Shown: positions 14,601 to 63,437 of the stretch, one piece after another
Layout: each line of letters opens with the position of its first letter
Position numbering within the stretch: position 1 is the stretch's first letter
Assembly: GCA_036172245.1 (NCBI GenBank)
Contig: JAYWIR010000004.1
Span: 5,766,001 to 5,830,000 of the forward strand
Reading direction: 5' to 3'
Length of the DNA stretch: 64,000 nucleotides
DNA from: Raillietiella orientalis
Taxonomy: Eukaryota
Notes under the pieces: model-generated
What the model saw: the letters and a program-made list of their open reading frames with translations, nothing else
The model's database searches: none
Told to the model about the DNA's origin: nothing
Translations under genes and position numbers: made by a program

Positions 14601-15973
14601 ACAATAAAAGGATAGTTCACCAACAGTAGCAAAACCAAATCGATAGATCTTGAAAAAGAGTCCATGGATTACGATGATCCAAGCCTTCCAAAAGCAAACA
14701 GCCAACGAAGAATTTATAAAAAGCAATCATTACTGAGAAAAGAAGCATCCAGTGGAAAGCTTGATGCTCCTCTTTCTGGGAAGCAAACAGACCCTGATTC
14801 CTCCAGTAAATATGATGTTTACCAAAGAAAACACTTCTAGTGAACCTTTCGTATGCTTCCTAGAATGGGTCGTTTAGAAGTGTTCTAGGACCCTATTACC
14901 TACACCTGTGATAGTGGCGTAACCGGTATTATGTTATAAATGCGTTGAGTTCATCCAGCGGCATGCATGTCTTGAGAGAGTTTTCTAGATGGCCAACTCC
15001 AGTGGTCAAATCTCAAACCCAATGGTTTCTTGCATGTTGCTCTTCTGGTTTACAAAATTCCGGAGCCTCCCTTGCTATGTTTTACTTGACCTAAGACGAG
15101 AAAGTGCTTTCTCCCATCCGAGCAAGTTCAGTGCTTTGCAGGACTTCCGAGAACGGGATGTTGCGAGATGTTCAAGCCTCGGTTTCAGAAAAGTGGCTTC
15201 TACGTCAGAGGAACAAATTGCTACTGCTCGCTGGTTCCAATCTGTTCCAGATTTCCAGCTAGCTCTCCCCACCTTCTTCTGTTACTGTTCGGTCCCAAAA
15301 GATGTCACTAGCATTCCCTTAAATCTCTTGCTCAAATACAAGAAGTCGTTTTCAGAGTTTTGACTTCGATGGAGCTTGTTCATGGCGCGGGGATGAGAGT
15401 GATTGGTATCTTCACAGATCCTCTTGATTTATGAGGCTGATTCATTGGGTCTTAATATTTGTGATCAAGACGTGGATTATGAAGGCATTCTTCTCCCTTT
15501 CATCGTTCCAGGATTCTTAAAGCTTTTCCAGGATACTAAGCGGCACTAAGGTTTTGATGAAAGGAAGAACGGAACGAAAAGGTTTGCTTCAGGAGCACAT
15601 CCACAAGTTCCCTCGCCAGCCTGCGTGCTCCCGCTCGCTAATGTGCCGAGGAAGATTCATCACGTCTGTTAGCTCGTATTCCACAATTCCCAAGGGAATT
15701 CCTCTCAGCGGAGCTAACATAGAAGTGAAACTCTTTCAACTCCTCCTCTCCTATCTCATTTTCCCTGGCATGAAATGTCTGCTTGGATGTCTGCTTGAAT
15801 CTGGCTCGCAGGCGTGCTCCATCCTATTCACGCTGCCGTTCTCGAGAGAGAGATCGAAAACCTACACGTATTACTCTGAGATCTGGGTCTCGCGACCTTT
15901 CCGTGGTCAGAGGTCATGCTTATCAAGAATTATGGTAACTTGAAACAACAACAACACATACAAAAAAACTGAC

Positions 15974-16590
15974 CTTCCTTCCAGGAGAATAGATAGCTTT
16001 TGATTGCAAAGAGTATTGTGCCTGCTGGCAAACTCACGCCCAGCCTCCAGGGACATGATCACTCCTTCCTGGGTCAACTCGTGGAAATGGCTTCTGGACA
16101 CCTGCAGGGGCAAGAAAAGCTTTTCGTAGAGCTCCTTAAGGTTGCACGGCACTCGGAGAGGGATCACATGGTAAGCCAAGTAGAGAATGTGTATCGCATT
16201 TATGAACACGAAAGAGCAGTTCCAGATGAAAACGTCCATGGCGCACACGAACATCCCTGACCATATCACAAATATAAGAAAGCCGAGGCACAGTAAGGAT
16301 CTGGATATGAGAGTGCTGAGGGGAACACGATGAGGGATGAGGAACGCAGCAGCAAAGAACAGTTCTGCTACTTGAAACATAAGGTGTTGGGCTTCCCCCC
16401 AGGCGGTACACAGTTCATCTTTAGCCAGCAGGACGCGACCATCAATGATGGTCGTCTGATTCCTTTGCAGAGATGTGAAAATCAGTGACAAATTATAGAT
16501 TCCTCTCTCTTTGGGATCATTAGGAGTCTTGAAGGATGGTGTGCTGGGAGAAAAGCTGTCCATCGTGACGAACTTGTGGTACCTTTTCAT
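15974..16590 (-). CDS. Popeye-domain protein gene B, large first coding exon (N-terminus, 3 TM helices, first half of Popeye domain)
   Basis: Encodes ...CTAWGEAQHLMFQVAELFFAAAFLIP...WSGMFVCAMDVFIWNCSFVFINAIHILYLAY...ELYEKLFLPLQVSRSHF...KLSILLEGR, with N-glycosylation sequons NLS and NQT in the N-terminus. Acceptor TTTCTTCCAG| (exon starts 16612), donor GGAAG|GTCAGT (phase 2). Alternative start Met at 16563. Confidence 0.93.
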
Positions 16591-17789
16591 GGTCTCATGT
16601 TTTCTGTGATTTCTGGAAGAAAAAAAAATCCATCATTCCATCGTAACAAACAACAAACATCGTTTTAGTTGCTGTGGTTGCAGCTGTCTGTTTCTCTCAT
16701 TCGGATCAAGATATTGGAGAACGGGAACATCAGATTCGGGGGTGCAATAACAAATTCGTTCCTTGCGCGAGGAAAAGTGAAGAAACTTTTCATGTAGGAT
16801 CGGCTAGAAGATCATAAATGCACAAAAGCGGGCGATTCCTCTCAGAGGTTCAGAGGGTGCTTTCTTAAGCACTCTAACTAAACTTCTGAGAACTGAAGTG
16901 TTTTGTACTTGCAATGCAAATACATTTGCGATTCTTTTGCTTTTCTTTATGATTTTGCGATTGAGACGTGTCCTTGTTTTTCGTTCAAGGAGACACTTAT
17001 CTTATCTTTGATATTATGAGGGATGGAGCTATGGCGAAAAATCCTAGGTGTCTGTCAGCTAGGTAGGAGGAATACTCGAGAAAGAAGGCGGAAATTTATA
17101 GGAATTCAACATGATCATAGGGCGCAAGTGAATTCCCACAGATCTCCCTCAGATAAATCTAAAGGACTTCATTTTTCCTGGGGAATGTTGTAAAAAGAAC
17201 GAGGATATGAGAAATTCTCTGGAAACCCAACACTTACATAAATGCAAGTTCTAGAGCAATGCATGACGAGCAGCCGAAATCTAATAACAGATATTCCAGG
17301 TGTCCTGTGGAATTCAACGTGAGGAATTCAAGGGGAAACTAGAATGGGAAGAAAGCAAGTCATAGCGATCCTGTTGCCATTCTGTTTGCCACTGCTGCTG
17401 GGAGCGTAAAGAACTTCCACTTTCGACTTCTTTCCAGCTATTAACTGGACAAACGCAGGGCGCTCGAGAGAAGGAATAGTGAATAAAGCCAAATGGTTCT
17501 GCTGGTTTGGATCACAAAGTCTTGAGAGAAAAAAACGCGTTTTTAAGCAACAGAAAGGTAAAAACCAAATTTTGCTTCAACGGAATGGACTGAGAGCGCA
17601 AAAGAATGCTGCAAAGATCGAGGGAAGGAAAAAACCCTTGACATGACGCTTGTTGACGAGACAATAGTGCATTTAATTTTAAAATGTATGTACAATGAGA
17701 ACAGGTAGAAGTTTTAGTATTACAATGATCTTGAAGCATTTAAAACCAAAGAAATGAAAAGAAAAGGAAGATGGTAGCTGGCTGCATTG

Positions 17790-24000: not shown

Positions 24001-26500
24001 GATTAAGAGTGGAGTGGAGAGAGAAACGCGTCTACGGATAAGGCGAATCGAGGCGCGCGGCCCCCTGCCAGCGCGCGCGCGTGCGCGCGGCTCGAGGGGT
24101 GAGAGGTGAGTCCCCCTTTCCCCCCTCCGCTTTCTGTTGTTTCAGGACGTGATTTCTCTCGGGGGTTGCTGTCCAGCGGGCCCTGATCTCCGCGTCTGCT
24201 CCTTGCCCCGTCGGAAGCTATGTTCCGCCTTCAGCCATCTCGGGCAGAGCTAGGAACTGAGATCCCATGGGGAGGCGATAGGAAGCCAAGGGAGGAGGGA
24301 GATGGGACGACAAGATAGGTCGTGGGTAGGCAGAGTGAGGGGACAGCTGGCGATCCGTGTGAGCAACGACTTCCTTCCTTCCAGTCCCAAGCCCCCCGAC
24401 AGCCGGCCCAGGACGCTCCTGGGACCCCCTCCTTAGCCCGATTCTGGGAGACAGGTTCACCTCCATACTCGGAAAAAGGGGGAAGGGGAACGCATCTTCT
24501 GCCCTCCATGTAACTCTTTCGAGGAATGCCCTTCCTTCCCGTATGGGATCGGACCGGGAGCATCGTCCGGGAGCAAAGAGTCTGGTCCTCCTTGGGATGA
24601 TGGCTTGATCCGGCTGTCCCGGCTCCCGATCCGGGAGCTGGAACGTCCCGCTGCTCCCTCCCTAGTCTCCCTCTGAGAATCCGGAAGTGTCCCACTGCTC
24701 CGCCCTATCTATGCAACTCCCTCCAGAGGAGCCCAAAGAGGTCGATCAACCCGCTTTCCCTCCTCATTTTCCTCTCCCTGGCTGCTGACTGCCCGCTCTC
24801 GAGAGAGTAGGGGAGCGGGAAGGAGGGGCCTCATGGAGGTGGTGCAGCTTCGAGCCCAGGAAGGGTCCAGGGGTCTTCCTGGGGTCGAGTTGGGAGCACC
24901 GGAGGTTGTCCGGCGGATGACTCCAGGAAGAGCGAGGAGGTGGGCGAGGAAGGAGAAAGAAAAGGCGAGGGAGATACCCGCATCCAGAAGGCGAAGAGGG
25001 GGGGAGAGAAGGGATGAAGCCGGAAGGGGTGGAAGCAGCGGCTCTCTGCGCTAGAGACTTCGCCCCCGGAGGGCGTCACCGCTCGGAGAGAATGTTCGGC
25101 TCCTCCCTCTTCCACGACCGCGCCCTCTTCGTCCTGGTCCCTCCCATCCCCTTTCGACCCTCCCTCAGCGTGCGCCGCAACACTCACCCTCCGATGATGA
25201 CCTCCCAGCCGTGGATGAGGGAGCGCCTCGAGCATCTCACCGCCAGTAGCAGCGCCGCCGTTACCGGCCGCCGCCGCCGCCTCTGCGAGCGCGTTCGCTC
25301 CGCGCATGCGCGCGCATGCCCCGTTCCTTGCCCGCGTCCCGCGCGTGTCCGCCGGGCGCGCCGTCGGTGAGAATCCTCCGAGGAAGCTTCCTCCCTCCTT
25401 CCCCAGGAGGAGCCATGGCACGAAGGGGAGAAAGGACTCCCGGCCGCAGCCTCCTTGGAGCCCAACCCTCCCGCGGTCTGGATCCCTCGGCGGAGAATCC
25501 TCTCCGGATATTCGCGCTCCTGTCGCCTCCCGCTTCTGAAACTTCTCTGAGCCGCTCGAACGGGGAAAGGAAAAAGAGGGGAATGCCGCCGCCTTCGTGC
25601 CCTCCGAAAGGTCGTTTCGTCGGGTGACGGCAGCGGCGCGCGCACCGACTGTTCTCCTCTGCCTCTCCTCCTCTCCGCGTCTTGAACCTTCGCTCCCCTG
25701 CGAGGAAGTGAAAGGAGGAGGAGATAGAGCTCAGGAACTTTGTGTGCGAGACCTTGAGTTCCCTGAGGATTGCTCTGAGTCATTTCGGGGGGCTCTCCTT
25801 TGTGTCTCCCACCCCCACCTTGCCTTCCACAAGGGCAAAGGCGGCGTCCATTCGGTCGACTCGCAGCCCCAAGGCACCGCCTCCCTCCCTCTTTCATATG
25901 CTCTCTCCTCCTTCTCCTCCTCCTGTCCACCATCAGCACCACCAACCTCTCCTCCTCTTCCGCTTCCCGGCTGCTCTTCTTGCAGTCTTCCCAGCGATTT
26001 CGAAGGAAGTCGCTTGACCGCCGCTAGTTTTCCTCCCTGCCCTCTGCTCCTCCTTTCCGTCCCCACCCCCTCTTCTTTAGGCGTCACTTGCCAGCCGACT
26101 ACAGCCCTCCGGTTGGTGCTACTAGAGGGAGTCTCCCATGATTTTCCACTGAGGCGTGGCAAGCCGAGCGGGGCTACCCCATCAGTTAGACATTCATGAG
26201 GGAGAGAGAGAAGAGTGGAGGGAGCTTCCCTCCACTCGGTCCGTCGGAAACCATGGCGAGGCACTCCCTCTTCTCAAGAGCGGTTGCAGTGGAAAGAGGA
26301 TAGGGATGGCGAGCAGGGAAAAGGGATCTGAAGCGTGTTGCAGGATCCCCTGACCAGGAGGGAAGAAGCTCCTGAGGAAGTTTCAGGAGGAAGGAAGAAG
26401 TGGGAGGGCCAGTCGTCTAAGAGAAGACCTGAGCACCATGGGATCTCTCAGGAGGAGCTCTGAAGGGAGCGATCGGGTCGTCAGGCTCCAACGTAGGTCA
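21050..26500. other. GC/CpG-rich island of unresolved (probably mobile-element) origin
   Basis: Abrupt rise in GC and CpG relative to the flanks; GCGCATGCGC at 25302-25311 and a (GC)n tract at 24071-24089; no recognisable protein domain. Confidence 0.6.
21262..22566 (-). mobile_element. GC-rich probable LINE 5' end / ORF1 relic
   Basis: Starts with AAGATGGCAGC (22553-22563; YY1-like motif found at LINE 5' ends), ATG at 22493, long overlapping basic ORFs, and ends in an A-rich tract near 21262. Confidence 0.35.
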
Positions 26501-27289
26501 GTCTTAACGCGTGGGATGTGCTCATGGGAGGGATGGAAGAAGCAGATCGATGTGTTCGGCGGGTCGGTTGGTCCCTGAGCGACGGCAGGGAGACAACGGG
26601 AGAATGCGGACTGCAGCGACCCACCCTCGCCACTGCCTGCCAGGGCATCTTCCTGAGGTAGCTTTGCGACGGTTCAAAGTCCTTCTCTCACCCCAGAATT
26701 ACCTCTGGAACTGGATTCAGGTGCAGGAGCTCTTCCCAAGATGCGCCGTAGATCTGAGGTCCTCAAACCTTCGGGCGAGCTCTCATTAGAGCTTGCGGTT
26801 CTGGGGACACTTGGAGGCAGTTTCGCTTCTCGGCCTTCCGGCAGAGATCATAGTGGAAGCACTTTCTCTGCTTCTCCAACCAAAATGGGCAGAGGCTTCA
26901 GAGTAGGAGATGGACAAAAGGCTTTCTTTTAGTTCTCGAAGGAAGGAAAGCGAAGAGCTCCTCGACATGCCCGATGTACGAATAATCTCGGTCTCCATCG
27001 CTACAGGAAGGCACATTTCAAACACTCTTCACCCTGGACTGCCTTCGGAGGGCGAAACCAGAGGGATTCTTCCTCCGGGACTCCCCCACAGCCTCCGAAA
27101 CGCTCAGAGAACGGATCGGGAGTTTTTGCAAGAACTCGAAGACCCAGGACACGCAAAACGCGCACTTTTTCTCGTCCCTTCTGTCGCTTTCTTCTTCTCT
27201 CTCCTCCGTGCAGCTCCAATGCAATGCGAAAAGTCCTTCTTGCTCGACCTACTGAGTCCCCCATCCACCTCTGACTGATCTCCCTGAGA

Positions 27290-28620
27290 ATCCGCAAGAA
27301 TGAGTAGGAATCACATCCCGGCGTCTCTCCTGGCTAACAGGGGAAAAGAAAAATATGGGATTTGGCAGCGACAAGGAACTCCAGTTGTTTACCAGGGTGC
27401 AGTGGAATCCCGAAAGGGCGGTTTCATCTATGGCATGCATTTCCACTTAAACCCTGCAATAACCCTCCTTGGATGCTGTGACCTTCCCTCATGGGTGTGC
27501 GTCCACCGTCGGCATGGAGATGCCCTTATGCTTGCTCCCTGCAACTGGATACCGACTTAGAATCCAAAAGTGACTTCACCCTTGAAACAGTTTGGACAAA
27601 TGCTGGTATTGCAGAAAAGATCTTTCTCTATGCTCATTCACGTTCTGAGGACTCAGTCTCAGCATCCAAACTCGACTGCTGTGGCCTCCGAATTCGAAGG
27701 GTCTCTGGAAAAGGACTGAGAATTTGTCCTGGAATTATCATTGAGAAAGTAAGGGACAAAAGACATCCAACAAGGTGAGAGGTGTCCTGCTGCTCGGCAG
27801 AAACTTCTAGGTGCGTAGATAACTCGGGAGGTCACGGACGCTGTGACCCCGAGTGTCCCACACCATGGACTTCCGCGCTGGGGTGAGCAGCTTGCCGTCC
27901 CTGCAGAGGATAATTGGACCCCAGAGTGCCAAAATAGTGACATCCTCCCTCTCAAGTGGCAGGAGTTAGCACTGCTGGTCCTGCATTGGAGAATCCTATG
28001 CAAAGCTCACCTTCACAAATGGAGTGTGAATGCAGACTGTGACAGGTGCAGGGAGAGAGAAACCCTCCCACACCTGCTTCTAGCCTATGCTGCCCGTTGA
28101 TCCCTTTGTGGTCGCCTCGCGATGACCCTTGGAATCCCGGTGGATAGTCCCGGGGACATTTCGAATCGCCACTTCGTACGTGCCACACTGCCGCCATCCG
28201 CGTCCCTCGCAGTTCTCTGCTGTCTTCGCAGGATCGTGGTCTGGAAGCCATCCGAGGATCGAGAGTCGCCTTGAAGACCACCAAGAAATGGCCTCAATTG
28301 GACAAAATCCGTAGCAATCTTGCCAGCATCCCAGACAGGGTGCAGAGGACGCCTCACAGAGAACTGTGACCCCTTCCTCCATTACCCCCTTTTCCACCCC
28401 GAGAAAAACTTTCCCCTCCTTTTTGTTTGTTTGTTTTTGTTTTCGGTTTTACCTTCTCCTTCTCTGCCGAAGTGGACGTTGAAAATCTCCGTACCAGCAT
28501 CTGGATGGTTGAATGTGTCCTCTTTTTGGTATGAGGTAGAGCCACGTGTTCTACCACAGAAATGTATTTTCATCATTATTTTATATAACAACAAGTGTCC
28601 CGGAAAAATCGGGTAAAACA
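27290..28620 (+). mobile_element. LINE 3' portion, same family as 43309-44263
   Basis: LPLKWQELALLVLHWRILCKAHLHKWSVNADCDRCRERETLPHLLL (CxxC...ETxxHLL finger). DNA similarity to 43309 onward (cctctcaagtg[g/a]caggagtt), shared T-rich tract and terminal hairpin. Left boundary uncertain. Confidence 0.75.
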
Positions 28621-31339: not shown

Positions 31340-33480
31340 AATTTAGAATAATTCGCATAACCAACAGTAAGTGAGTGCCTATCGACATCCATTCCAAGAT
31401 CTCACACTGAGGATTAGGGAAGAAGGACGACTTCCCACGTCGTTCCTCCAGAGCAGGATGGAATTGCTGCCTAAAGGAGGAGACCTCATTATCACGCCAA
31501 CCGGTGGAAGAGGTCGATCTCCATCCTGAACATGTATGCAAGGTGGCCGGTCAAGATCTGAACCAATCCGCCTGCAAAGCCACCATGGAGGTTGTGATTT
31601 CTCCTCCAACATAGACATGCGCGGTGTCTGAACGTCGCATGCCTGATAACGTGAAATTGCGCTCGTGCGATCACCGCGTAAAACCAATACGTCGGCCGGG
31701 TTTCACAAGGCATTTGACGCAGTGGATCACGAAATGTTGGTCAGGATTTTAAGAAAGCTGAACCTCTAGAGCCATTTGTTCGAGTGTGTAAGGAACATTT
31801 CCAGGGAAGAACATCTTTAAGATCCGGATCGAAGAAACGGAAGCTATTTGGATGGAAAGGGGTATCGGTCAAGGAGACATCCTCAGTACGATCCTGTCAG
31901 CCATACACATGGAGGCGGCATCGCCCTTTATGAGCAGCGCCGCTGGACGTTTGCATGCGTCTAGAGGCTAAATTACCTGGCTTACTCCGACGATCTTCTC
32001 TTCAAGGACGAGAGGGATCAGAAAGTACTTCTGGAAGCAGTCGACTGCATTAAACAAAAATTTGGCTTGACTATCAACTCCAATAAATCAAAAATCTTGT
32101 CCACTGGTCCCCTGAATATCTTTGCATTATCGGGGCTGGGATTCCGAGCAGTGGACTACATAAAGCACCTGGAGACGCCTCCTCATCGGCAGCAATGTGA
32201 GAAGGAACCCTGGAAGAGACAAGAGAAGAGGCAAGCGAGTGCAGTGGTTCCGACTTCAACATGGAGCAGAGGGTCCACCTACAGAACGGTGTTTTGCTCT
32301 CAAAGACCCTTCTCAAAGCGGCTTTCGGCCAACATGACAAGGTGGTCCAATTGGTAACCGAACACCTTCAGAGAAAACGCTTGTGGAGGTAGTCCAAATA
32401 GAGGTTGAAACTGAGGATTTGTGTCATCACCCCAGAGGTGAAGGCGGGACCGGTATGAAGTCGCTGGGACTCATGGATGGGTGGCAACTCCTGGATTTCA
32501 ACAAAAACTGTGGTCGCTGGCAGTTTGTGGATCACAGAGTCTACTCGGAGCTACAAAATAGCTCTAATGTTCTCACTGATAGGAAGATGACAATGGGGAT
32601 CATCGTAGCATCACCCGCATGACATCGATCCCACCTAGACCAGAAAACAAGCATTCGTGAGGATCTTGCAACTCGAAATAATTCTCCAAAGCAAAGCAAT
32701 TGGGGACAGGGAACTGACCAAGGCAATTCCTTGTTTTCTATCCCTTTCACGGAAGACGGATCAATGGACGCACCAGAGACCAGCAATGGCACTCCAGGAC
32801 TGCGAAGTGAACGCAACCAATGGCAGTCTCTATGAAATGCAGCTGTTCCTCTATATCCAGTCCGTGAGAAGCAATTTACCCACAAGACACGAGAGCTGCA
32901 GCAAAATCAGGCCAATGGAGCACGGAGCAAAATAAGGAGAGAATGTATCGAAAGACGTATACCGAACAAAGAGAAAAGACACGAGGCCGTAACCAAGGCT
33001 GCTAGTCGCTTTGTGATTGCAACAGAAAACTTCGAAGCGACTGGAACTACCGTCTGGAGGACTGACCTGCCACTGGACACTGAGGACGGTCTCCTCATGT
33101 TTTATCACGGAGGAATCCTGAGTGGTCCGAGGCTGCGTCAGTGCACAGAAAACTTTCCAGAAGAGTTCTGCATACCTGAGGAGACAAAGAAACTTAGCCG
33201 CTAATGCTCACCCACCGACTGGAAAGCGGTCAAGGAGGTGACGAACCTGCAGAAGAAAAAACTAGAAGACAGAACTAGAAATGTTAGGTGGATTATTTCA
33301 AGAAGACGGCGATGCTTTTCTATACAATCCCATGGTAAGAACAACCATCACCCTCTCCATCACGGACATTGTAATAAGAAGAGCAAACATGGGAAGAAAA
33401 ACACGGGGACAGTCCTGGAAATCCTGAAAAGGAATGAAAGAAATGCATTAGTAACTCCGGAAAAGTCCCCTCCTGTACAA
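31340..33480 (+). mobile_element. Decayed non-LTR retrotransposon ORF2 (reverse transcriptase to C-terminal region)
   Basis: WKRSISILN (RPISLLN-like), FHKAFDAVDH (31701-31730), GIGQGDILS (31861-31887), AYSDD (31980-31994), FGLTINSNKSKI, then LLMFYHGGIL. Many frameshifts. Confidence 0.9.
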
Positions 33481-36479
33481 ATCGCTAGATTCTGAAAAGA
33501 ATGCAAGCTAATGGGCAAATGAGAGCGAACCTCTGCAGTCTCTAATGAAATCCCAAGGACTCGAAAGCCTGGAAAGTGAGAAAGACAAGTGAAATGAACG
33601 TTGATGGAGCGATTGAATGTTTGGTTTTGTGTTTTTTGTTTGTAAGTAAGTTAAGAAAATCACCCCACCGCTTTGGACCTAGGGAAAATTCTGGATATCT
33701 CCACACAGTGTTGATGGTTTTCGCCGTTCCATCCCCTCATAAGAAGCATTTCATGCCTCAATAAGAGTGCGCTAAGCAGTAGACGGGCAGTTTCGTGTTC
33801 TTGAGCTTGATTTAATGCAGTAGTCCTTTAATGGGTATTGGGTGACTGATAGCAGAAACCAGACCGATTGCATCATAAATAGCCATATCGGATATCATCG
33901 AACAAAAAAAAAAAAACTCGATATTCGGTGAAACCTTTTTATAACCAACTACAGTATCTGCAGTACCACCTGAATCTTTGACAGCCCCAAATATTCCGTG
34001 CCGGGAAACAAGTTGTGTACAGTTTCAGGATAAAGACTTACTCCTGCTCGTGAGGAAGTATTATAATGCATGGCCGGCACGAATCTTTTCTCAAGTAACT
34101 TTTCAAACCATTGGTCCCATGATTCCAGGCTTTGCATGAATGGAGGTTCTCAATAAACAGCCGTGAATAGGCATATGCTTGCAAAAGTCTGGCCATTCAA
34201 GAGTCCAGTGTAAATTCCCTTGCGGTACGGATGCTATGATTTTCGCGTTTCCCCACTTCCCCTGGGTAGGGTCAGTATATGTATCGATAAATTAAAGAAA
34301 TCTATCAGAAAAGATGCAGGTCGCTCTTATTATCATGATCACTGCCATTTGGTCTAACAAATGGATATCTCAAGGTTGTTGTACAGGTCCCTTAGTTTTT
34401 TTCCTGTGCTAGACCGAAATAGTCATGATATAAAACCACTAAAAAAATAATACAACTAATGAAACAGGATCGATAAAGATGCTAAAAAATCTATCAATAA
34501 AAAGTGCTGCCTTTTTTTCTATCATGATCGATAGCTAAATCTAGAGGGTATTCCCATCCATTTGTTCTTGAAGATGTTTTGCACAGAGAAGCTTTGCTAA
34601 ACCTTTATTTCTATCGAGCAGTGGTTGAAAATGCAACTCTACTTCACGTGCAAAATATTGCTATAATTGTAATCTACTTTTCTATACTCACCTTTTTAAT
34701 ATTCACGTTCTCTATATTCACCTGCATTTTTTAAAATCTAAACCACCTATCAACGGATGCGAAACGGATCTTCTAGATTATCCACAGCAGGTAAAGGGCC
34801 ACCTTCTACACTCTGTAATTTTACATCATACTTTCCACAAAGTATGCTACCTTCCATGTCAGGCCAACCCCCGAATTCATTCTTCTCATTGCAGCTGACG
34901 TACCGATTCCACGTAATGCCACGACTTACAAGTGCACCTCCAGCCACACCAAAGTCGTTGTCAACCTCACTCGTGAACCTCAATCTGGCAGACTGCCTCG
35001 CACGAATTCTTTGCAGTGCATCCATAATTGCTGAGCAGTAACTTTGATTCCTTTCTACTGCTCTTAATCTTGACTGGATTATTCGAAAAAAATAGCTTCC
35101 ATTAGTAGCCGCCTGCTCTACATAGAGACTATCAGAATATCAATTCCTATTTAATTGGTGTTCTCTAGCTCTCTCTCTACTACTACTAGCAGTTGCTTTA
35201 TTGGCTTGTCTTAATGCTTTTATTATTCTTAACCAAGAATCTTATTCTAGGTATATCCTCTTTCTAGTCCTAATCTTCCATTTTTTTCTCCATAAGCCAA
35301 GTCTGTTTCAGAGACATTTTGCTTTCCACCAAGCGGCTTGTTTAAAGCTCTAAAGAACTGCATTAAATTAGTTCTGAAGTCGAAGGTTTTCAATTGTGTT
35401 GGCTTCAACGTCATGTGAATCTGCTATTGACTGTCGATTCTGATCTGTGATTCCACACACAGTATTGGAGTTATGCTAACAAAAATGGTAATCGACAATT
35501 ATAGCAAAGATGGTAGAATTGTGTAGCCATTATAATTCTGCATATTGGGCATAAGCTTCAGCTGTGTTCTACTTGGGTATCCGAAGCACGGGGAGATGAA
35601 GCTTTTAACGCGCTTACGCAACCGAGCTCAGCGGAAGCTGCCAACATCCCGTTTGTGCAACTGAGCCAAATGTAGGCAAGATTTTGATAAAACATCGGCG
35701 TTTAAAACAAATCTCATTAATTGCAGTCTGTGCACGATGAAAGAAGCAACTCAGTTACCGACTGGTTCCCAAACGAACCGTTCTCACACTAGCTAGTTTA
35801 GGTTGCTTAAAACGGTTCCATCATTTAGATTCGTAGGAATCCATAGTATCAGGTTATCGTTAATTTGTTTGAGTATGGTAAAGAATTTAGTTTTGGTTAC
35901 ATTTTGTTAGTGGCTGCATCTCCAATAAAATCTGAAAGGCCATCATTCATATGAGTGTGTGCTCGATTGTGGAGCCAGTATGCTAGGGCAAACCCTAAAC
36001 AAGTTGAAAAATTTATGAACTCTCCCGGGCAGACTGTAAATGTTCCGTACTAGAGAAAAGAGACAGTGACTTGGGCAAATCTTCATCTTGACGGGGAGAA
36101 TACCTCTGGCCCAAGAGGCAATTCGGCTGAGCTAAAAGTAAGAAAAACACATACAGGTACAAGGCTGACAGATTAAGTTGTAACTTATGGGAACATTTGT
36201 ATGCCAATTCAAGAAAGACCCAAAGATCAAAATTTTGAATTAAAAGAGTTGGAAATTCGAAAAGCAGGTTGAAGTGTAGGGGCTACTCCAAGCAGTTTAT
36301 CTAAAATGAAGGGGAGATTCACATATCTTCCAAATAGAGGCTTCATTCATACATTGACCACATTCCATCACATTTGCATTCTGCTGGAGATCGAAGATTC
36401 ACTCTTCGTTCGTTCTTAGGAAAGTGGCGGATGCAGAGATAGCAAAAAAGAGAAATATTGGGAAAACATATTTTAGTTT

Positions 36480-37440
36480 TGGTGTCTCACAAACTCCATT
36501 TAAGTGGCTGTTATTGAAAAAGAAAAGTCCAGAAGATGAAGCTGGGGTTTGAAAGTGTTTAATAGATCCTTGATACTTAGGTTCAAATATGATACCGTTT
36601 TTGAGACTTTCGATGAACCCACGTTGTACGAGTTCTCGATTGTCTCGGGTGAGATCGATAAGAATGATTTTCTCACCACTGTAAAGGTGAGCTGCATCTG
36701 CTTTTTTGCAGCTTTGAAGGTATAGGTAGTGGACGCCTCGCTTTAAGTATAGGAACTCAGCGAAGGTGGTGTTTCCTCCTTTGCCTCGCTCGTCCTTAAT
36801 CCAGTAGATGTTTCTGTCATGTGGAAGCTTTCGGAGGATGTCGAGTACTTGGAGCTGCAGATCTTCCACTCTTGTAAGCAAGGTCCTGCCAAATAGCGTT
36901 TGGGTGGTTGGTAGCTCTGTGCAAACGGAAACACTCCTTGATGAAGGTGATGTTCTTGGAATATGGTGTGGTGTTGCAGAATGCTTTTTCTGCTCTGAAT
37001 GAGTTGGAGAATCTAAAAAGAGAGTTTGGAAACAGTGTTTGCAGACGTGTGAATGTGGAACCTCACGAGCGAGTAGTGAGTGATAGAAGAGGATGATAGT
37101 CTTGGACTTACTTTCCTTTCGTAGTTACCGGACGGATCTCCATGTCCAGTGATCCGTGTCCCCATGGTTTGGGATCTTGCTTACTGCAGTAGTCGATGTT
37201 TGACTGCTGATCCTTTTGCCTGCTCGAGATGAGAACGATGAAATGGAATCCTCCGCATCTGCGGCATTGTTCTAGGCTCGTGCAGCTGAACGTATCCTTG
37301 GAGATGAGGAGTACCTATGGCGGAGCATCCTCTTCAGATGATGGCATAAGAAGCATTTTTCTGGACTACTGCTTGATGTCATCGACCTCTCCGTCAGTGC
37401 GTAGTTATTTGTAGTGAAGCACCAGTAGTTGCATGTTGCA
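36480..37440 (-). pseudogene. rep: Endogenous viral element: decayed CRESS-DNA virus Rep (HUH endonuclease + SF3 helicase), nanovirus/alphasatellite-like
   Basis: Motifs in correct order on the minus strand: I WCFTTNN (about 37404-37424), II PHLQGY (37292-37309), III YCSK (37180-37191) then PWGHG, DRNIYWI, Walker A GKGGNTT (about 36765-36785, K to N), Walker B-like ILIDLTR, and IESLKNGIIFEPKY. Frameshifts and stops lie between motifs. Confidence 0.93.
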
Positions 37441-37479
37441 AACCTGCAAACACTGCTACCCTTATCAGAGTTTCAAGTA

Positions 37480-37530
37480 CCAAGGCCAAGGTCACGGGCC
37501 TATTTACCAGATGCCCCGTCACTTTGGCTT
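37480..37530. other. Candidate rolling-circle origin stem-loop of the endogenised CRESS virus
   Basis: Arms GCCAAGGTCACGGGC (37485-37499) and GCCCCGTCACTTTGGC (37513-37528), loop CTATTTACCAGAT, tandem CCAAGG x2 at 37480-37491. Lies about 60 nt upstream of Rep motif I. Confidence 0.55.
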
Positions 37531-39219
37531 ATTATACTGTTCACTTACTTGCAGTACCATTCCAGTGTTACGACGAAAGTTCACAGATATGCAACCTGCA
37601 TGCCCTATGCGTTTGCGTGTGGCGGATGTGAAAGTGCTGAGTAAGGGTTAAGGAGACGAATGTGTGGGATAATGATTTAATTAATGAGTGGAAAGGAAGA
37701 GGAAGAAGAGAAGGGGGGATCAACAGTGTATATATTGTTGTAACAGAAGTGGTTGAGATTAGTGCTCTCTGTTATTGCCTGAAGCGCATCGAGACCGGAA
37801 GAATGGCTGAATGTGTGTTCAATGTTTGCAAGCAAAATTTCTTGGATCCCGGTGCTAGGCAGTGTGATGGCACCCCCTTCCTGGACACTCTCTTTTCGTT
37901 TTCTGTTTCCATTTAAATCAACAGTATGAAGAAAAATTTCCGTACTTAGCTTTCAAAGAAAAAAAAAAAAGACTTTACTTGCGACTATAGGAACCTGTTG
38001 CACTGCAGCAGGATGAGAGACGGTACGCACATCGAGATAAGAGTAATTTGTACTAAGAAGAAAGATGTCATACAAGTAGCTTGGCACAGCTGCACGAACG
38101 CTAGTTCGAAAGCAGATTATCGATGGCACAATAAAACCCCTTTCTCAACAGAGAAATCCGGGTGTGAAGATTTAATAAGATAAATTTAGCAAGTGCAATA
38201 TGCTCTATCATAAAAGAGCCTATTGGTGTTGAAGTTGTTGCGGATTACCACGAAGATATGCTTAGAGAAGACCTTAAGTTAGAGAAAATCGCTAGTAATA
38301 TCTTAGTAAAATTGCCTCTTACACATGAAGGGACAGTTTATTGTAAAAAATTGTGTACAGATCATAAAATATTTCTTAACGTAACGTTATGCTTACTGCC
38401 TGCCTCAAAAGATAGTTTTGTTTCATCCTCTGCTGGTCACCTAGGTTACGATGACTTGTAGCTAATAAAAAGTGCATGCATTTTCCATTAGTGAGAAGCC
38501 CAAAGCATGTGATAGAAGCTGCAAGGCTTGGTACTGATCGAATTACTGTATCAGAAACGAATCATCCACTTATTGACTAGGGATTTGCAATATATGAAAA
38601 AGACTGAGCTGCGAAAGAGTGAACGGTCACAGGAATTTGCTACGTAAAAAAAAAAGGCAAAGTAAACCCACAACAGCGTTATTTTACGATCTGGTGTCAA
38701 AAACTAATGAGCCAATTGGTTCTTGGACTTGAAAATGAAAGTCAAGTGTCAGGAGCTACTACTCCATGCTGTTATGGCCAATATGGAAAACCTCTTCACC
38801 CGTGAAACTGGCGATCTGTCACCGCGGCCATACCTGCAACAGGCTATAAGTGCAAGTAGCTACTCAGCAGCTAGTGTACTATGGTGTACAACTTTTTGAG
38901 ATTTAGAAAAAATGCGACACGTGTGTGACAGGAACACATATGCACTTCGCTGAAGAGGCACTGCACTTTTTGTACTGAATTTTCACTGCTCCAAGGTGAA
39001 TTGAACAATTAATGGATCAGACTTTCCCATATGAGCCTCTGTTTACCATCTCAGTCAAAAGGTGGAAGACATTTTGAACAGTGGCAATTAAATTCTTGAT
39101 TTCGTGACGAGAGAGAGATATCGTTGAAATGTTGTCACTAATGCAGGCTACGGAATGCCTGAACCTAACCGTCCAACCCTTAGCAGCATGGTAGATATAA
39201 AAATAAATTTACACTTATA

Positions 39220-39900
39220 GCGTCAGAAAAATTGGATGTTCAAGAGGAAAATCACAAATGGAGCGAGCGACTGTCGAACATTATGGTCATCCACGGGAGG
39301 CAAGTTCTCGCCTACAAAAGATCTTTGGAGGAGAGGATAATCCAAAGGACCCGGGAACTTTGGCAGGAATTGGGCGCGCAATGGTCTAGGATGAATCTTC
39401 AGATGAAGAACATCAAGATCCCGAAAGAGGTGACTCCATTTGAAGCGATGGGAAAGATGAAGTGCAGGCTGGGCAACCTCGTCCTCGCTCCACAGGCGAT
39501 CGAGACATTCCTCTGGAGATCTTCCCTGCCGTCGGGCATCCAGGATTGCCTCCTGATGTTCTACCACGGAGGCATCCTGTGCGACACGAGGCTTCAGCAC
39601 TGGACCGGGAACTCGACGCGTGAGGGTCGATAGAGGACGACCTGCACATCTACACCTGCCGAACCCTCGTCCGAGATCGGAGAGTGGTGAGGCGGGAGGT
39701 AGAGATGGAGGAGGACACACCGACGCTGGAGTTCCTGCGAGGAAAGGCACAGATGTCGTGCTCCGTTACAACCCCACCATGCGGACGATCACCACCATCT
39801 TCCTGAGGAGTATCCTCATTATAAAACGAAACGGACGCAAGGACACGTGTGCAATTTCCGGGATATTTTATTAAAACTCCTGAAAAAGGAGATAAACATC
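39220..39900 (+). mobile_element. 5'-truncated copy of the same LINE family (ORF2 C-terminal part)
   Basis: WRSSLPSGIQDCLLMFYHGGILCDTRLQHWTGN matches WRTDLPLDTEDGLLMFYHGGILSGPRLRQCTEN at about 33050-33150; downstream DNA is also similar. Confidence 0.75.
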
Positions 39901-40599: not shown

Positions 40600-41365
40600 T
40601 GTGTCCAGCCCGCGTCGGAGGCTTTGTGGTTAAGGCTCCCGCGTGTGGCACCATGCGTCAAGGGTTCGAATACAGAGGCAGAAACTGACGCCACCGCGTC
40701 ATTGGGCTCCGAGTTTCTCCTGCAATGGCTCTGGTTGGCTGAGACATTCGGGCGTGGCACCGGCGGTGGTTTAACCCGGAAGGCCCATGAAGAAGGCCAG
40801 AACTCCAGAAGAGTGCAAGGAATCCCCCTGTGGGAAGCTGCTGTGCCTTCTGAATTTCGGAAGCGTCCCTTCGGGTTCTCTTGAGAGGAGTGAACAGGAG
40901 CGCTTCCCTTGAGGGTTCCCTCCGGAGAAGAAATTCCTACTAGCGGATCCTTTCTGGATTCCCTTCGGAGAAGATGAAATTGAGAGGATCACCCCTCTTC
41001 CGGGGGTCCCTCCGGAGAGAATGAGGAAGGAGATTCCCTTCGGAGACAATCAGGGTGGGAAGTGTGATCTCCCCTGAAGGTGGGATGCCTCCTCAAGCGT
41101 GAGAAGAACGGATTCTGAGCCTTCCTGGATTCAGAGGGCGGACCCCATCCCGGGGTTCCCCTATCTTGAAGAATAGCGCGCACCTTCGGCGGGTGGCGTA
41201 GAACAGTGCTGAAGAGCCACGTGCGCAGAGAGGCACGCGACCGGCTCTTGAGGTACTTAGCGTACCCAAAAAAAGAAAACCTGAAAAACCTCCAAAAAAA
41301 TGCTGGAAGGGAAAAAACAGCGAAGACAGACCCAAAAGAACCCTAAAGGATTTCCATCATCCCTA
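40600..41365. repeat. Interspersed repeat copy 1, with internal degenerate ~40-bp repeats
   Basis: Colinear with 42290-43300. Recurrent CCCT(T/C)CGGAGA core, A-rich tract and the terminus AAAGGATTTCC(A/G)TCATCC. Confidence 0.75.
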
Positions 41366-42289: not shown

Positions 42290-43300
42290 CGGAGGTCACG
42301 TGGCTGCGGTCTCCGTCTGTGGCACCGAGAGGAAAGGCGGGTTCGAATACTCGGAAAGGATCGACCCCGAGAGATGAGGGTGCTTCGTGGGTTCGAGTCC
42401 CCTCCACAATGTGATTGGCCTACATTCATTTGGGTGCTGCACTGGTAGCTGTTCAGACCGGATGCCCCGATGAGTGGCCTGGATCGGTAGTCGATCCTCC
42501 GGGTCCTTCCAGGAATCAAGGAGTGAGAGTTTCCCTTCGGTTATGCAAAGGAGCAGACCTCCCCTCAAGGGAAACTCTGCGTCTTGTAACAGGGAGCTGG
42601 TGAATTGATGATGCCTCTCCAGTGAGAAGTGAGCCGCTCCCTTCGGGGTGTGCCCCACAGAGAAAATGGGAAACGGCCCTCCGGGATCGTCTCCAGAGGA
42701 GCCGTTTCCTCCTTCAGTGGTGGGAACTCTCCATCGCGTACCATGAAGCTGGTTAGTACCCCCCGCGGGGATCGCCTTTCCAGAACACAAGAAGCGCTCT
42801 GCTCCCTTCGAGGTTCCCTTAAGAGGAGTAAACAAGGAGCAGTTCCCTTGCGGATTCCCTCCGGGAAAGAAATTCCAGGAGCGATCCTTTTCGAGTACCC
42901 TCAGGAAAAGAAACAAAGGAGAGCAGCCTGCTCTGGGAGTCCCTCCGCAGAGAATAAGGAAGAGTTCACTTCAGGGTTCTTTTCGGAGACAACTAGAGTC
43001 GAGGCTCCCTTCTGGGATCCCTCCCTAGGCGTAAGAGGAGCAAACTCGCTTTTCCGGAGCCCTTCCTAGATTCGTAGGGTAATCTCCTCCCCAGGAACCC
43101 CCTATCCTGAAGAATAAACATGCACCCCCGGGTGCCGTGGAACAGCGTTAAAGAGCTGAGTGAACCGCAGCCAGGCGCTCGACGGTTCTTGAGGTACTCG
43201 GCAAACCAAAAAAAGAAAACCCGAAAAAAAAAAAAAGGAAAGAAAGCCAGAAGGAAAACAGCGAAGACGGAAAACAACCCAAAAGGATTTCCGTCATCCT
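42290..43300. repeat. Interspersed repeat copy 2
   Basis: Shares gtggcacc..gggttcgaatac, ttcccttg..gg.ttccctccgg..aagaaattcc, cttgaggtact, aaaacagcgaagac and the terminus with copy 1. Confidence 0.75.
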
Positions 43301-43308
43301 AGGCCAAC

Positions 43309-44263
43309 CCTCTCAAGTGACAGGAGTTGGAGCTGCTGGTGTTGCATGGGGGGATCCCATGCAAAGGCGCGCCTTAACCACTGGATACGAAGGAGCATGG
43401 ATGCTCGGTGCGACAAATACGGGAAAACGGAGAACCTCCTGCAGCTGTTGTTCGACTGTGCTGCCCAACGGGATCCTTGGGGATCTCCTCGCGACGATCC
43501 GGGTGGCCCCAGGAGTATTTTCAGACGCCTCTTAGAGCGTGCCGCACTGCCGCCAGTCACGTACCTGGCAGTTCTCTGTTGTCTCCGAGGAATGCAGAAA
43601 ATCACGGAGGCAGCATGGGTGAAGGCCTGGAAATCAGAAAAGGCCGGTCAGGAATGAGGCCTGGAATCACGGAGGCGTGGAATGCAGAAAGAAGAGGCTG
43701 AAATGTCAGGGACGTCATCCACTTCCTGAGGACCGCCGCGAGATGGCCACCTGAACTATACACAGACGGAACTTGACAGCATCCTGAACAGGATGCAGAG
43801 GACGCCGGGCAACGTACTGTGATCCCTTCCTCGGTCCCCTTCCCTGTGTATAATTTCCCCTCCTTTTTTGTGTGTTTCTTTTTTTTTTTTGTTTTTATTT
43901 TCGTTTTCCCTTCGCCCACGCGCCGAAGCGAACCTCGCCGGTCTGCTCACCGGTCCTCGACAGTTCTTTTATTTTTCATTTTTGTTTTTTCTTTTTATTT
44001 ATGCCCCCTCCCCTCTGCTGCCGAGATGGACCACACCGGTCTGAGAACCGGTGACCCGGCAGGCTTTGCATATCTAGTGCGTGGTTGGACCAGTGGTCCA
44101 GCCACAGATTTTGTATATGTTTTATTCGGAAGAATACACGCCCCAGCGCACTCGGGTGAGAATCGACAGACTCGTTGCACGTCGTCGAACCAAGGGTTCT
44201 ACCGTACCAATGTAATTTTATTACTCAACGTAATAAATGGCCCGGCACAACCGGGTATTGTAA
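43309..44263 (+). mobile_element. 5'-truncated LINE (CCHC zinc-finger end + 3' UTR) with a 15-bp target-site duplication
   Basis: Zinc-finger remnant ARCDKYGKTENLLQLLFDC, T-rich UTR and terminal hairpin. Flanked by TCATCCTAGGCCAAC (43294-43308) and TCATCCTAGGCTAAC (44264-44278). Confidence 0.8.
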
Positions 44264-46517: not shown

Positions 46518-46609
46518 CTAAAAAAGCCAAAGAGCTATGTAGCGGAAAAATTCTGAGATGTTACGTAATTTGCACACATATCATATGCATGATTGCTTAA
46601 TTGTTTAAC

Positions 46610-46762
46610 CTTCTTATTCATAGAATAGAGCTTAGAGACAATGTCTTGTTCAACAAGAGTCAGGAAAACATTAGCTACAAACTGGTCTTTCACGAAGAGG
46701 TATTCGAGATTGTTTCTTTGCCAGCAAAGTATGCACGAGTCATCTACAGCTATTACGGAAAC
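46610..46762 (-). CDS. bves: Popeye-domain protein gene A, coding exon (end of Popeye domain)
   Basis: 153 nt, VSVIAVDDSCILCWQRNNLEYLFVKDQFVANVFLTLVEQDIVSKLYSMNKK, containing the DI..KLY..N motif. Acceptor TTTTTTCCAG|, donor AAG|GTTAA. Confidence 0.94.
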
Positions 46763-48111
46763 CTGGAAAAAAAGAAAAAAATGAAACAATCACTTTGAAG
46801 AAATATGTTGTCTTTTTTTTTTTTTTTTTTTAAACTACAAATGCGAATGAAATGAACATCTAAATAGCACACAGATATCTAAATCCCTGCGAACATATGC
46901 AAGCGTGCTAGATGAAATGAAATGCTTTAAGCTTTCTGCTTCCATAGTCTCTTAGAGAATCAGGAAAGCAAAGTTGACGCAGAATGTTGCCAAATGAAGT
47001 ATGTTTCCAGATGAAATTGGCCGTTTTTTTTTTTTTTTTCAAATCAAAATTGGTTGGATAGTTAAATCTTCCTTTAGTGGTGCTTCATGTACCAGCTACC
47101 AGCTCTTATGCTCAGCAAAAAGTACACTTATTGGTTCAGTTTTTCCTTTGTCGATCTCTATTATGGTTCCTAATTGCAATTAATCCCATTTCGAGGAAGC
47201 TTAGCAAAGCACACCATTGGAGCAAATCCTCCTCTACTTCTAAAAATCATCACAAAGGACAATTCAACAGATATTAGCTGCAATGCCATGATTACAGAAA
47301 AGCCTGTCAAGTAGAAAACGGTCCACGTAAATTGGACGCTGATGCATCTTCAAGTGAAGCTCACTACAAATCTTTCCCATACAACATGTAATATGATGCA
47401 TAGAATCAGTGAACTACCCCTTCTATATTCATCTGGCAGACCGAACGCAAATGACGTACGTACGTACGTATGCATATGGATTCAAACTTTTATACGCATG
47501 TGGTGTGGAGTTTTACATGCGTATAAAAGTGAAGTGGATGCGAAACTGAGTGTGGGATTAGAAATTAATTCAATACATCCGACTAAGAAATAATGAAGTT
47601 GGAATTATCTGTGGTGAGCAGTCAGTTGAATGACAAACAGGTGATTGCTTCAAACCTTTAAAGAATGACTTTTATAATCACTCTTTTTATGGCCCACCTC
47701 AGTTTTTCATGTATGAGTTGTCAGTTTAGAATTCACGCCTCGACTCCAAGGGCGAACGTCTTTTAGGAGCAGCTTTTACAGAACAGTGTTCGGTATCGTT
47801 ATTTGAGGCTTAATCCCCAAAACCATTCATCCTGAAGCTTGAAATAAATCCAGAGAAGCCCAGCTAATATACTTTGAGTCTCGCCCTGAACGGAGTATCC
47901 ATCAGTTATTAATAGTCCTGAGACATTCTCGGATAGTGTTTCAATACAATGAACGTTGAGCAAATCAGTGTTTCTTCGTTGGGAGGAGAACACTCATTTA
48001 CTTCCCAGACAAAATCAGAAAATAGTCTTTATAATAAGCCGTAATTAAGTGAGGCTAATTATGTCAAGACTACTACTGGTTTGAATTACATGTTTTCACA
48101 TTCTATTCTCC

Positions 48112-63255: not shown

Positions 63256-63437
63256 ATTCAAAGGTTGAAATAAAGAGGAGTAAATGACTTCCAGTTCACT
63301 TTCGAATTTCGCTGGACGCAGATGGTAGATAATGTATAATAGCTGCGCCATATTTAAGATCATAAACGTAAAGTTCCAGCTGAAAATGTCTGGGGCACAC
63401 AGCACATTCCAAGCCCAAGTTGAGTACAGTAAGAACC
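63256..63437 (-). CDS. bves: Popeye-domain protein gene A, internal coding exon (TM2-TM3 region)
   Basis: Acceptor TTTTTTTAG|GG, donor AAT|GTAAGT. 182 nt (2 nt + 60 codons) encoding (G)FLLYSTWAWNVLCAPDIFSWNFTFMILNMAQLLYIIYHLRPAKFESELEVIYSSLFQPLN, typical Popdc W..CAPD.F.WN transmembrane sequence. The upstream TM1 exon was not found in the window. Gene symbol is family-level. Confidence 0.93.

Follow-up and report, generated by a model that had tools for sequence, protein, structure and literature searches.

A decayed Rep gene of a CRESS-DNA virus lies between two tandem POPDC host genes

Introduction

What is the broken, Rep-like sequence that lies on the minus strand of a 64,000-nucleotide stretch of contig JAYWIR010000004.1 (positions 5,766,001 to 5,830,000; the window, whose own numbering is used throughout), from what kind of virus did it come, and did it arrive alone? 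The sequence occupies positions 36510-37445 and is a decayed, near-full-length Rep gene of a CRESS-DNA virus (CRESS, circular and Rep-encoding single-stranded) of the Cressdnaviricota type, referred to here as the Rep pseudogene or the fossil. A preliminary description had placed a fossil Rep of a nanovirus- or alphasatellite-like virus at this position; the location is correct, and the gene is on the minus strand.

Elements of this kind have been documented in many animals. A total of 302 Rep-like sequences were reported from 35 eukaryote species, with the sea hare, lancelet, Hydra, Trichoplax, Varroa, mites, the sea louse and filarial worms among the hosts named, and a "nanovirus-like" clade of endogenous Reps outside the established family was defined in the same report (Liu 2011, BMC Evol Biol 11:276). 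A screen of 307 invertebrate genomes yielded 93 Rep-like sequences, about 60 of which were judged endogenous; as characterized there, these elements form long, poorly resolved branches among divergent CRESS viruses, and cap is reported for none of them (Dennis 2018, J Virol 92:e00145-18). Krikovirus Rep fossils are recorded from snakes, lizards, turtles, four beetles and an earwig; in all, 133 krikovirus Rep-like endogenous viral elements are counted across 47 species, some of them insects (Kinsella and van der Hoek 2023, PNAS 120:e2303844120).

Results

The Rep pseudogene extends from motif I to motif C

The extent of the Rep pseudogene and the positions of its motifs for rolling-circle replication (RCR) and for the superfamily 3 (SF3) helicase, all read in translation, are as follows.

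36510..37445, minus: Rep pseudogene, endogenous CRESS-DNA virus element, from motif I to motif C (collinear tblastn high-scoring segment pairs, frameshift-tolerant alignments, Pfam, phmmer)
37401..37424, minus, frame -3: RCR motif I, WCFTTNNY (tblastn segment pairs 75-88% identical to motif I of relatives)
37292..37315, minus, frame -1: RCR motif II, GTPHLQGY, HUQ type, with an in-frame stop upstream
37180..37191, minus, frame -2: RCR motif III, YCSK, with the catalytic Tyr (tblastn segment pairs at 37206-37147)
Ahead of Walker A, minus, frame -3: pre-Walker block, DRNIYW
36768..36785, minus, frame -3: Walker A, GKGGNT, with Asn at the lysine position (codon 36773-36771)
36645..36668, minus, frame -3: Walker B, IILIDLTR, with D75 and R78 of the 132-aa helicase piece on nearly invariant columns
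36573..36611, minus, frame -3: helicase block ESLKNGIIFEPKY, typical of this helicase type
36510..36527, minus, frame -3: motif C, LFFFNN, with N123 on an invariant column; detectable similarity stops here

Three alignments were used: a profile built from 49 neighbours (A1), a second with 79 relatives (A2) and a third of 12 sequences (A3). In agreement with the preliminary description, RCR motifs I to III are followed in order by the SF3 helicase motifs, and the series is broken by frame switches, a stop and a Lys-to-Asn change in Walker A. In A2, residues E90, G95 and K101 of the ESLKNGIIFEPKY block fall on invariant columns, and K93, N94 and Y102 on nearly invariant ones. The Walker A lysine, present in at least 90% of the 79 aligned relatives, is replaced by Asn in the Rep pseudogene.

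The breaks were mapped by aligning six related proteins to the DNA with tolerance for frameshifts. Five of these, the Reps of the unclassified genomes L005 and L014 and the metagenome Reps P0012, P0005 and P0049, match 255-281 codons at 33-40% identity, along paths that run from 37445 or 37421 to 36543 (to 36498 for P0005). Each of these five long paths requires 4-7 frame switches, which cluster near 37350-37400, 37205, 37115-37170 and 36860-36955. For the sixth, P0021, the helicase half alone was aligned (160 codons, 34% identity, one frame switch). An in-frame stop at the codon starting at 37336 is present in five of the six alignments.

At the two ends, the gene is incomplete. No start codon is seen ahead of motif I. 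In relatives, an arginine finger block, (K)LSxDRW, follows motif C by about 10 residues; it was found in no frame of the window, which fits either decay or 3' truncation of the fossil. The last 30-40 residues of Rep are likewise not detectable, the alignments ending at 36543-36498. The term "full-length" in the preliminary description therefore holds for the span from motif I to motif C and not for the termini. Frame switches number at least four and stops at least one, Walker A has lost its lysine, and both the start codon and the arginine finger region are gone; the Rep pseudogene cannot yield a working Rep.

Protein and profile searches identify the sequence as a Rep

The 50-aa piece that contains motif II is matched by the Pfam family Viral_Rep (PF02407; E 2.9e-8, 34.3 bits against a cut-off of 26). 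When the 132-aa helicase piece was searched with phmmer against 1.84 billion representatives, 1944 matches reached E<=1e-3 and 201 reached E<=1e-10; the best has E 5.9e-24, and the top rows are 33-45% identical. Domain scans of 20 phmmer matches found Viral_Rep in 17 and RNA_helicase in 16, and the 20 match clusters examined are carried on contigs of 1.2-3.9 kb, with no virus name more exact than "Cressdnaviricota sp." attached to them. The best single match, P0001 (354 aa, on a 3.9-kb contig labelled as a Methylococcales metagenome-assembled genome, MAG), lacks a Viral_Rep nuclease domain and carries this helicase domain twice in tandem (residues 4-99 and 214-317).

When 155 related proteins were compared with the window by tblastn, all 208 segment pairs fell within 36000-37500, in minus frames, collinear and in the frame order -3, -1, -2, -3, and one Rep copy was found within the 64 kb. 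A profile search with A1 returned 98 matches, nearly all of them unnamed. An AlphaFold2 model of the helicase piece (mean pLDDT 81.1) gave 83 matches at E<=1e-3 in BFVD; among the best 50 of these, all named ones are Rep or replication proteins, and 27 of the 50 rows are unnamed.

Several further searches were negative. A word-indexed search of the 50-aa nuclease piece against longer proteins produced one candidate and no match. In the PDB, the helicase frame is without a match, and phmmer finds no helicase of the Rep from porcine circovirus 2 (PCV2) at E<=1. Searches of IMG/VR and the JGI metagenomes with the fossil's own peptides recovered no close exogenous relative; Rfam has 0 matches in the window, and a full-text literature search on the helicase motif strings returned no relevant paper.

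Among plasmids and cellular genomes, relatives are nearly absent. The helicase has 0 matches in the 72,556 plasmids of PLSDB, and among 185,579 prokaryote species genomes one peptide pattern of the neighbours was located at a single locus, which is on a 1.85-kb MAG contig. A collection of 50,697 phage records contains one helicase match, to the Rep gene of the 19.6-kb "Pinkberry virus" (OP947160.1, L082; 33.7% identity over 99 aa). This tailed-phage-like record has two annotated replication-associated protein genes (4208-5101 and 15255-15851) and no transaldolase, and is a case of a CRESS-type helicase in a much larger virus.

Helicase type and phylogenetic placement

Judged by its signatures, the SF3 helicase is of the type common to nanoviruses, alphasatellites and many unclassified 2-3 kb CRESS genomes and not of the circovirus type. 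For comparison, relatives were gathered from IMG/VR, where 146 of 170 pattern matches encode relatives and a scan with A3 led to 79 loci. Ten IMG/VR contigs of 997-1010 nt each carry a single Rep open reading frame (ORF) of 286 aa, and in 10/10 the sequence TAGTATTAC is located in a stem of at least 8 bp, on the Rep strand, at the contig end. From this size, the single ORF and TAGTATTAC, these 1-kb replicons are taken to be nanovirus or alphasatellite components.

The Rep pseudogene shares with the Nanoviridae M-Rep and the alphasatellite Rep an R.I.W block before Walker A, a D..R Walker B, the E.LKNG...KY block and an (F/A)N motif C. The preliminary description had regarded DR.I.W, D..R and E.LKNG...KY as signatures of the nanovirus/alphasatellite type, and this is sustained: all three, the first as R.I.W, are common to the ten 1-kb replicons and absent from P0247 and P0248, two Reps that bear circovirus-type helicase motifs. 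Helicases of the circovirus type are characterized by G.PG.GKS, WWDGY, a DDF-like Walker B and ITSN, none of which is present in the fossil. In contrast to the shared helicase signatures, motif II of the 1-kb replicons is (I/R)H(F/Y)QG, whereas that of the fossil is PHLQG, as in circoviruses and the unclassified relatives, and their Walker A is G(G)EGKT rather than GKGGNT. The virus was of the HUQ (Arfiviricetes-like) kind.

In blastp, the 132-aa piece is 33-36% identical (55-58 bits) to three 1-kb replicon Reps, 37-43% identical (80-91 bits) to L005, P0049 and P0005, and without any match, even at E<=100, to the circovirus-type P0247 and P0248. Profile A1 matches PCV2 Rep at E 1.5e-30, a match confined to the nuclease and oligomerisation part (chain residues 14-163 of 314), and matches PDB chains 2hwt and 6h8o, which we take to be nanovirus nuclease domains, at about 6e-21. 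The only PDB matches of the 50-aa nuclease piece are weak ones on PCV2-type nuclease domains (best E 0.043). The fossil resembles the Circoviridae Rep (PCV2; PDB 7lar, 8xms) in its HUQ nuclease domain with motifs I to III, whereas the helicase domains are not alignable by HMMER, and in a Foldseek comparison the helicase model meets the PCV2 Rep ATPase domain at E 0.029 and 12% identity.

In BFVD, the helicase piece is closest to CRESS Reps that are unnamed or labelled "uncultured", 30-39% identical to it. The first entries with a classification by the International Committee on Taxonomy of Viruses are, at rank 23, the M-Rep of banana bunchy top virus (BBTV; 24% identity) and, at rank 26, a BBTV satellite Rep; a smacovirus is found at rank 41. 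With a model of the full-length L005 Rep (pLDDT 88.6), ranks 20 and 21 go to BBTV M-Rep and a BBTV alphasatellite, respectively. In both searches, no protein named as that of a circovirus, cyclovirus or avipoxvirus is among the best 50 matches, about half of which are unnamed.

For the trees, the fossil was translated through with X at every break. In a FastTree analysis of 124 rows, it belongs to a weak cluster whose neighbour is a clade with support 99 that includes the 1-kb group. In an IQ-TREE analysis of 49 rows with the C20 mixture model, the fossil's partners are L005 and P0021 (support 88), and it falls outside a clade with support 96 whose 28 rows include the 1-kb group. An approximately unbiased (AU) test of a tree with the fossil and the 1-kb replicons as one clade did not reject it (p 0.449, log-likelihood difference 1.78). 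The preliminary description of a nanovirus/alphasatellite-like Rep thus stands for the helicase type; the closest relatives are, however, unclassified 2-3 kb genomes at 38-42% helicase identity, the tree position is outside the 1-kb clade and, as described below, the origin loop motif lies on the opposite strand.

A putative origin hairpin lies upstream of the Rep pseudogene

37485..37528, loop motif on the plus strand (opposite Rep): putative fossil origin hairpin, about 40 nt upstream of the expected rep start

The stem of this hairpin comprises 8 + 5 bp with one C-C mismatch, and the 16-nt loop (37499-37514) reads CCTATTTACCAGATGC on the plus strand. The region 37478-37536 folds at -9.0 kcal/mol, and for 37440-37600 (161 nt) the z-score is -2.34, with three of 200 shuffles as good. 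Among the related IMG/VR loci, the NANTATTAC motif is found in a stem in 67/80. In L005 and L014, a TAGTATTAC hairpin is located immediately upstream of rep on the strand opposite rep, the same arrangement as in the window. The loop motif is not canonical, and the hairpin is taken as the likely, putative old origin of replication.

The fossil is flanked by two tandem POPDC genes

63013-63636, minus: POPDC exon, upstream gene (Pfam POPDC1-3, E 3.7e-24)
~55280, minus: Popeye-domain-like exon, upstream gene (translation)
46538..46789, minus: last detected POPDC exon, upstream gene (Pfam POPDC1-3 positions 115-140 of 140, E 4.5e-4, below the curated cut-off)
15907..16632, minus: large POPDC exon, downstream gene (Pfam POPDC1-3, E 7.6e-32)
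~9161, minus: Popeye-domain-like exon, downstream gene (translation)

These exons belong to two tandem host genes, one on each side of the fossil, as the preliminary description had held in placing it between host genes. The frame of the last detected exon of the upstream gene closes with a stop at about 46.5 kb. With about 9 kb to this gene and about 9 kb to a GC-rich block on the other side, the fossil is called intergenic. That block, at 20000-28000 and upstream of the downstream POPDC gene, has about 54-63% GC and an observed/expected (o/e) CpG ratio of 0.62-0.95; it contains many stop-free frames of 120-300 aa on both strands without a Pfam match, and may be a promoter island or a GC-rich repeat.

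The CpG o/e ratio is 0.78 over the whole window and 0.6-0.95 in every 2-kb bin. In the Rep stretch it is 0.68, versus 0.64-0.70 in the 2-kb surroundings, a likeness to the flanks that agrees with a long stay in the genome. CpG depletion is much stronger in vertebrate genomes, and from the window value the host is more likely an invertebrate animal than a vertebrate. A vertebrate host, which was considered for the POPDC pair and the GC-rich block, was set aside on the same value.

No direct or inverted repeats of at least 30 nt are present in 30-42 kb, where only old repeat fragments of 67-75% identity are found, and no convincing target-site duplications surround the rep or the transaldolase stretch described below. 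Two plus-strand frames, 32836-33204 and 39184-39633, are 35% identical over 100 aa (E 1e-15), share an 82-nt DNA match and have no Pfam match; they are old copies of one repeat family that flank the Rep and transaldolase stretch on either side. Dispersed direct repeats of 67-75% identity pair 27947-28450 with 43308-43895 and 40866-41362 with 42803-43299. The former pair brackets a 15-kb stretch that includes the fossil, at a divergence too high for a long terminal repeat call. At 31965-32357 (plus), a YSDDLL-like stretch is reminiscent of reverse transcriptase and has no Pfam match at E<=0.01.

A transaldolase pseudogene lies beyond the hairpin

38080-38580, plus: decayed pseudogene of a bacterial/archaeal-type short transaldolase or fructose-6-phosphate aldolase (best frame 38168-38458, 97 aa)

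The 97-aa frame is matched by Pfam TAL_FSA (E 4.5e-9) and by NCBIfam TIGR00875 (fsa_talC_mipB, a 213-aa model; E 2.9e-9). In the PDB it matches 14 sequences of 212-243 residues, all named transaldolase; the best of these are presumably prokaryotic short-type enzymes, with no animal long form among them. The ESM Atlas neighbours of the frame are bacterial, by phylum-level labels. Other frames hold further pieces: IIDGTIKP near 38120 and SPKHVIEAARLGTDRIT near 38500 (TIGR00875 positions 165-185, E 0.09). In all, the pseudogene consists of at least three frame pieces with an internal deletion over about 500 nt, lies about 550 bp beyond the hairpin and is directed away from it. It is bracketed by A-runs of 12-17 nt at 37955-37971 and 38645-38657 (plus), 686 nt apart, which may be the poly(A) tail and A-rich target site of a retrocopy.

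Besides the POPDC exons, Rep and the transaldolase fragment are the sole Pfam-recognisable items in 332 frames across the window, which makes their closeness striking, and TAL_FSA is the sole Pfam match in the 69 frames neighbouring Rep. The transaldolase may derive from a symbiont's DNA, from retrocopying of a host gene that was itself acquired horizontally, or from cargo carried by the Rep replicon.

Discussion

The analyses described above make it highly probable that the fossil is the germline-integrated, now decayed remnant of a CRESS-DNA virus with the helicase type shared with nanoviruses. The functions of such a Rep (nicking, metal binding and rolling-circle replication) are established for the family. 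In the living virus, the motif III tyrosine of Rep would have nicked the loop of the origin hairpin with a metal held by the HUQ motif, and Rep would then have remained on the 5' end, with its SF3 helicase, a hexamer, powering rolling-circle replication inside the host nucleus. Viral DNA with at least the origin hairpin and rep would have joined the germline of an animal, probably an invertebrate, in the spacer between the two tandem POPDC genes, most likely by non-homologous recombination of a replicative form. The copy has since decayed as neutral DNA.

Several points weigh against this account. Germline integration, copy number and the age of the fossil are what we infer rather than what we observe. 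Pfam RNA_helicase has no match to the helicase frame at E<=1, and a word-indexed protein search with the 241-aa helicase frame produced 308 candidates, none at E<=0.001. The TATTTAC loop of the hairpin differs from the canonical TATTAC, and its z-score is modest. The branch of the fossil in the trees is long, at 1.7-1.9 changes per column, and no starred clade of fewer than 21 of the 49 rows contains the fossil. Draupnirviridae, Naryaviridae, Nenyaviridae and Vilyaviridae are set apart from it only indirectly. Finally, no capsid remnant was found: tblastn of 293 ORFs from the 80 related loci gave nothing better than E 0.003 outside rep and nothing adjoining rep, although this negative is weak evidence because caps diverge fast.

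Three other virus-side origins can be weighed against the preferred one. Membership of the Nanoviridae/Alphasatellitidae lineage itself, as a Rep-only component or satellite of about 1 kb in an animal, is unlikely. The helicase signatures shared with the ten 1-kb replicons, the BBTV proteins as first classified BFVD matches, the AU test that keeps a joint clade with those replicons and a detectable viral stretch (hairpin plus rep) of about 1.03 kb with no cap found all speak for it. However, identity to the 1-kb replicons is lower than to the unclassified 2-3 kb genomes, BBTV M-Rep is just 24% identical, and the IQ-TREE position is next to L005, a genome of 2127 nt with a second ORF. The loop motif of the fossil is opposite the Rep strand, whereas TAGTATTAC is on the Rep strand in all ten replicons, and the AU outcome may reflect long-branch pull, both branches being long. 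It is very unlikely that the fossil belongs to the known animal Rep fossils of the circovirus side, that is, Circoviridae/Cyclovirus or Krikovirus (Draupnirviridae). This origin would accord with the number of krikovirus elements on record and with the nuclease half, which finds its weak PDB matches on PCV2-type domains and whose neighbours score PCV2 above 2hwt and 6h8o, but the helicase is without detectable likeness to circovirus-type helicases, and the best 50 BFVD rows, about half of them unnamed, include no circovirus-side name. Draupnirviridae are described as grouping with Circoviridae, CRESSV1 and Vilyaviridae (Kinsella 2023), and the canarypox Rep helicase was placed with circovirus-like sequences (Liu 2011). 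As the fossil helicase is not of the circovirus type, a krikovirus origin is unlikely, krikoviruses being judged here by description. The third possibility, also improbable, is that Rep, hairpin and transaldolase pseudogene arrived together, either as a capsid-less replicon of about 2.2 kb or as a piece of a larger element with a captured Rep, such as a giant virus or bacterial DNA. The two pseudogenes are the only Pfam-recognisable items besides POPDC in 64 kb and are about 550 bp apart; the transaldolase occupies the place expected for the second gene of an ambisense genome cut between two 3' ends, its family length (the 213-aa model) is near that of the L005 second ORF (223 aa), and a giant-virus Rep (Hyperionvirus) is at rank 49 of the L005 BFVD matches. 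With the TalC/FSA-like gene in the place of the relatives' capsid gene, such an integrated ambisense replicon, for which we hold out a similarly small chance, may have been a plasmid- or satellite-like CRESS replicon with no capsid, harboured by an invertebrate or by a microbe inside it; we know of no capsid-less CRESS replicon described with a metabolic gene in that place. Against joint arrival, transaldolase-like ORFs number 0/293 in the 80 related IMG/VR loci, no plasmid and essentially no prokaryote genome matches this Rep type, GC content is 38% in the transaldolase stretch versus 45% in Rep, and no other viral or bacterial domain was found within 30 kb by Pfam frame scans. The bounding A-runs suggest a separate, retrocopy-like insertion of the transaldolase, and the old repeat fragments around it indicate that the POPDC spacer collects junk.

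The remaining alternatives deny a virus-derived germline element altogether. Viral DNA from the sample misjoined to host DNA by the assembly has a slight probability indeed, even though Rep-like sequences on short contigs are noted as possible contaminating virus (Dennis 2018). A replicating contaminant would be intact, whereas the fossil has 4-7 frame switches, a stop and lost key residues; the nearest host exon on each side is over 9 kb away, the surrounding stretch is continuous and shows host-like CpG depletion, and the fossil's own peptides find no close exogenous relative in IMG/VR or the JGI metagenomes. A derivation from an HUH transposase (Helitron, Replitron or IS91-like) or a bacterial plasmid Rep is extremely improbable. 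HUH motifs are common to all these groups, and the best phmmer match carries the Methylococcales label, but the fossil has a single catalytic Tyr in YCSK fused to an SF3 helicase, and its relatives are 1-4 kb contigs with NANTATTAC hairpins. By comparison, Helitrons are described as having a Y2 Rep and an SF1B helicase, and a helicase is said to be lacking in Replitrons and IS91, while the HUQ motif is said to mark Arfiviricetes viruses and some pCRESS3 plasmids (Craig 2023). With a single Tyr, a fused SF3 domain, 0 PLSDB matches and one small MAG contig among prokaryote genomes, the fossil differs from transposon and plasmid HUH proteins.

The integrated CRESS-DNA virus remnant is thus a further example of the well-documented invertebrate Rep fossils. 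It shares with those described by Liu 2011 and Dennis 2018 readable motifs, the lack of cap, host flanks and a long branch among unclassified viruses; unlike them, it retains a hairpin that may be the old origin. Krikovirus elements are similar as CRESS Rep fossils in animal genomes with many stops and frameshifts, with insect hosts known, and differ in the circovirus-side grouping of their family, from which the fossil is set apart by description. Closest in sequence, with the same motif set, are the unclassified genomes of about 2.1-2.3 kb (L005 and L014) and the metagenome Reps P0005, P0012, P0021 and P0049. The genomes of L005 and L014 are intact and circular and carry a second ORF of 223-297 aa as well as the canonical TAGTATTAC, in contrast to the broken fossil with its TATTTAC loop, and no second ORF recognisable as that of such genomes was found in the window by tblastn.

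The value of the find is limited, since the best identity to a sampled virus is about 40% and hundreds of comparable Rep fossils are in print. The suggestion in the preliminary description that it could assign a host to orphan metagenomic viruses goes too far, as at this identity no particular virus gets assigned. The transaldolase pseudogene would matter more if it were linked to Rep. What the fossil does indicate is that a virus of the unclassified CRESS assemblage with the nanovirus-shared helicase type probably once replicated in the germline of this animal lineage, which would provide one more fixed host point for a group known almost solely from metagenomes. If orthologous loci exist in related species, the well-conserved POPDC pair would make the insertion easy to find and to date.

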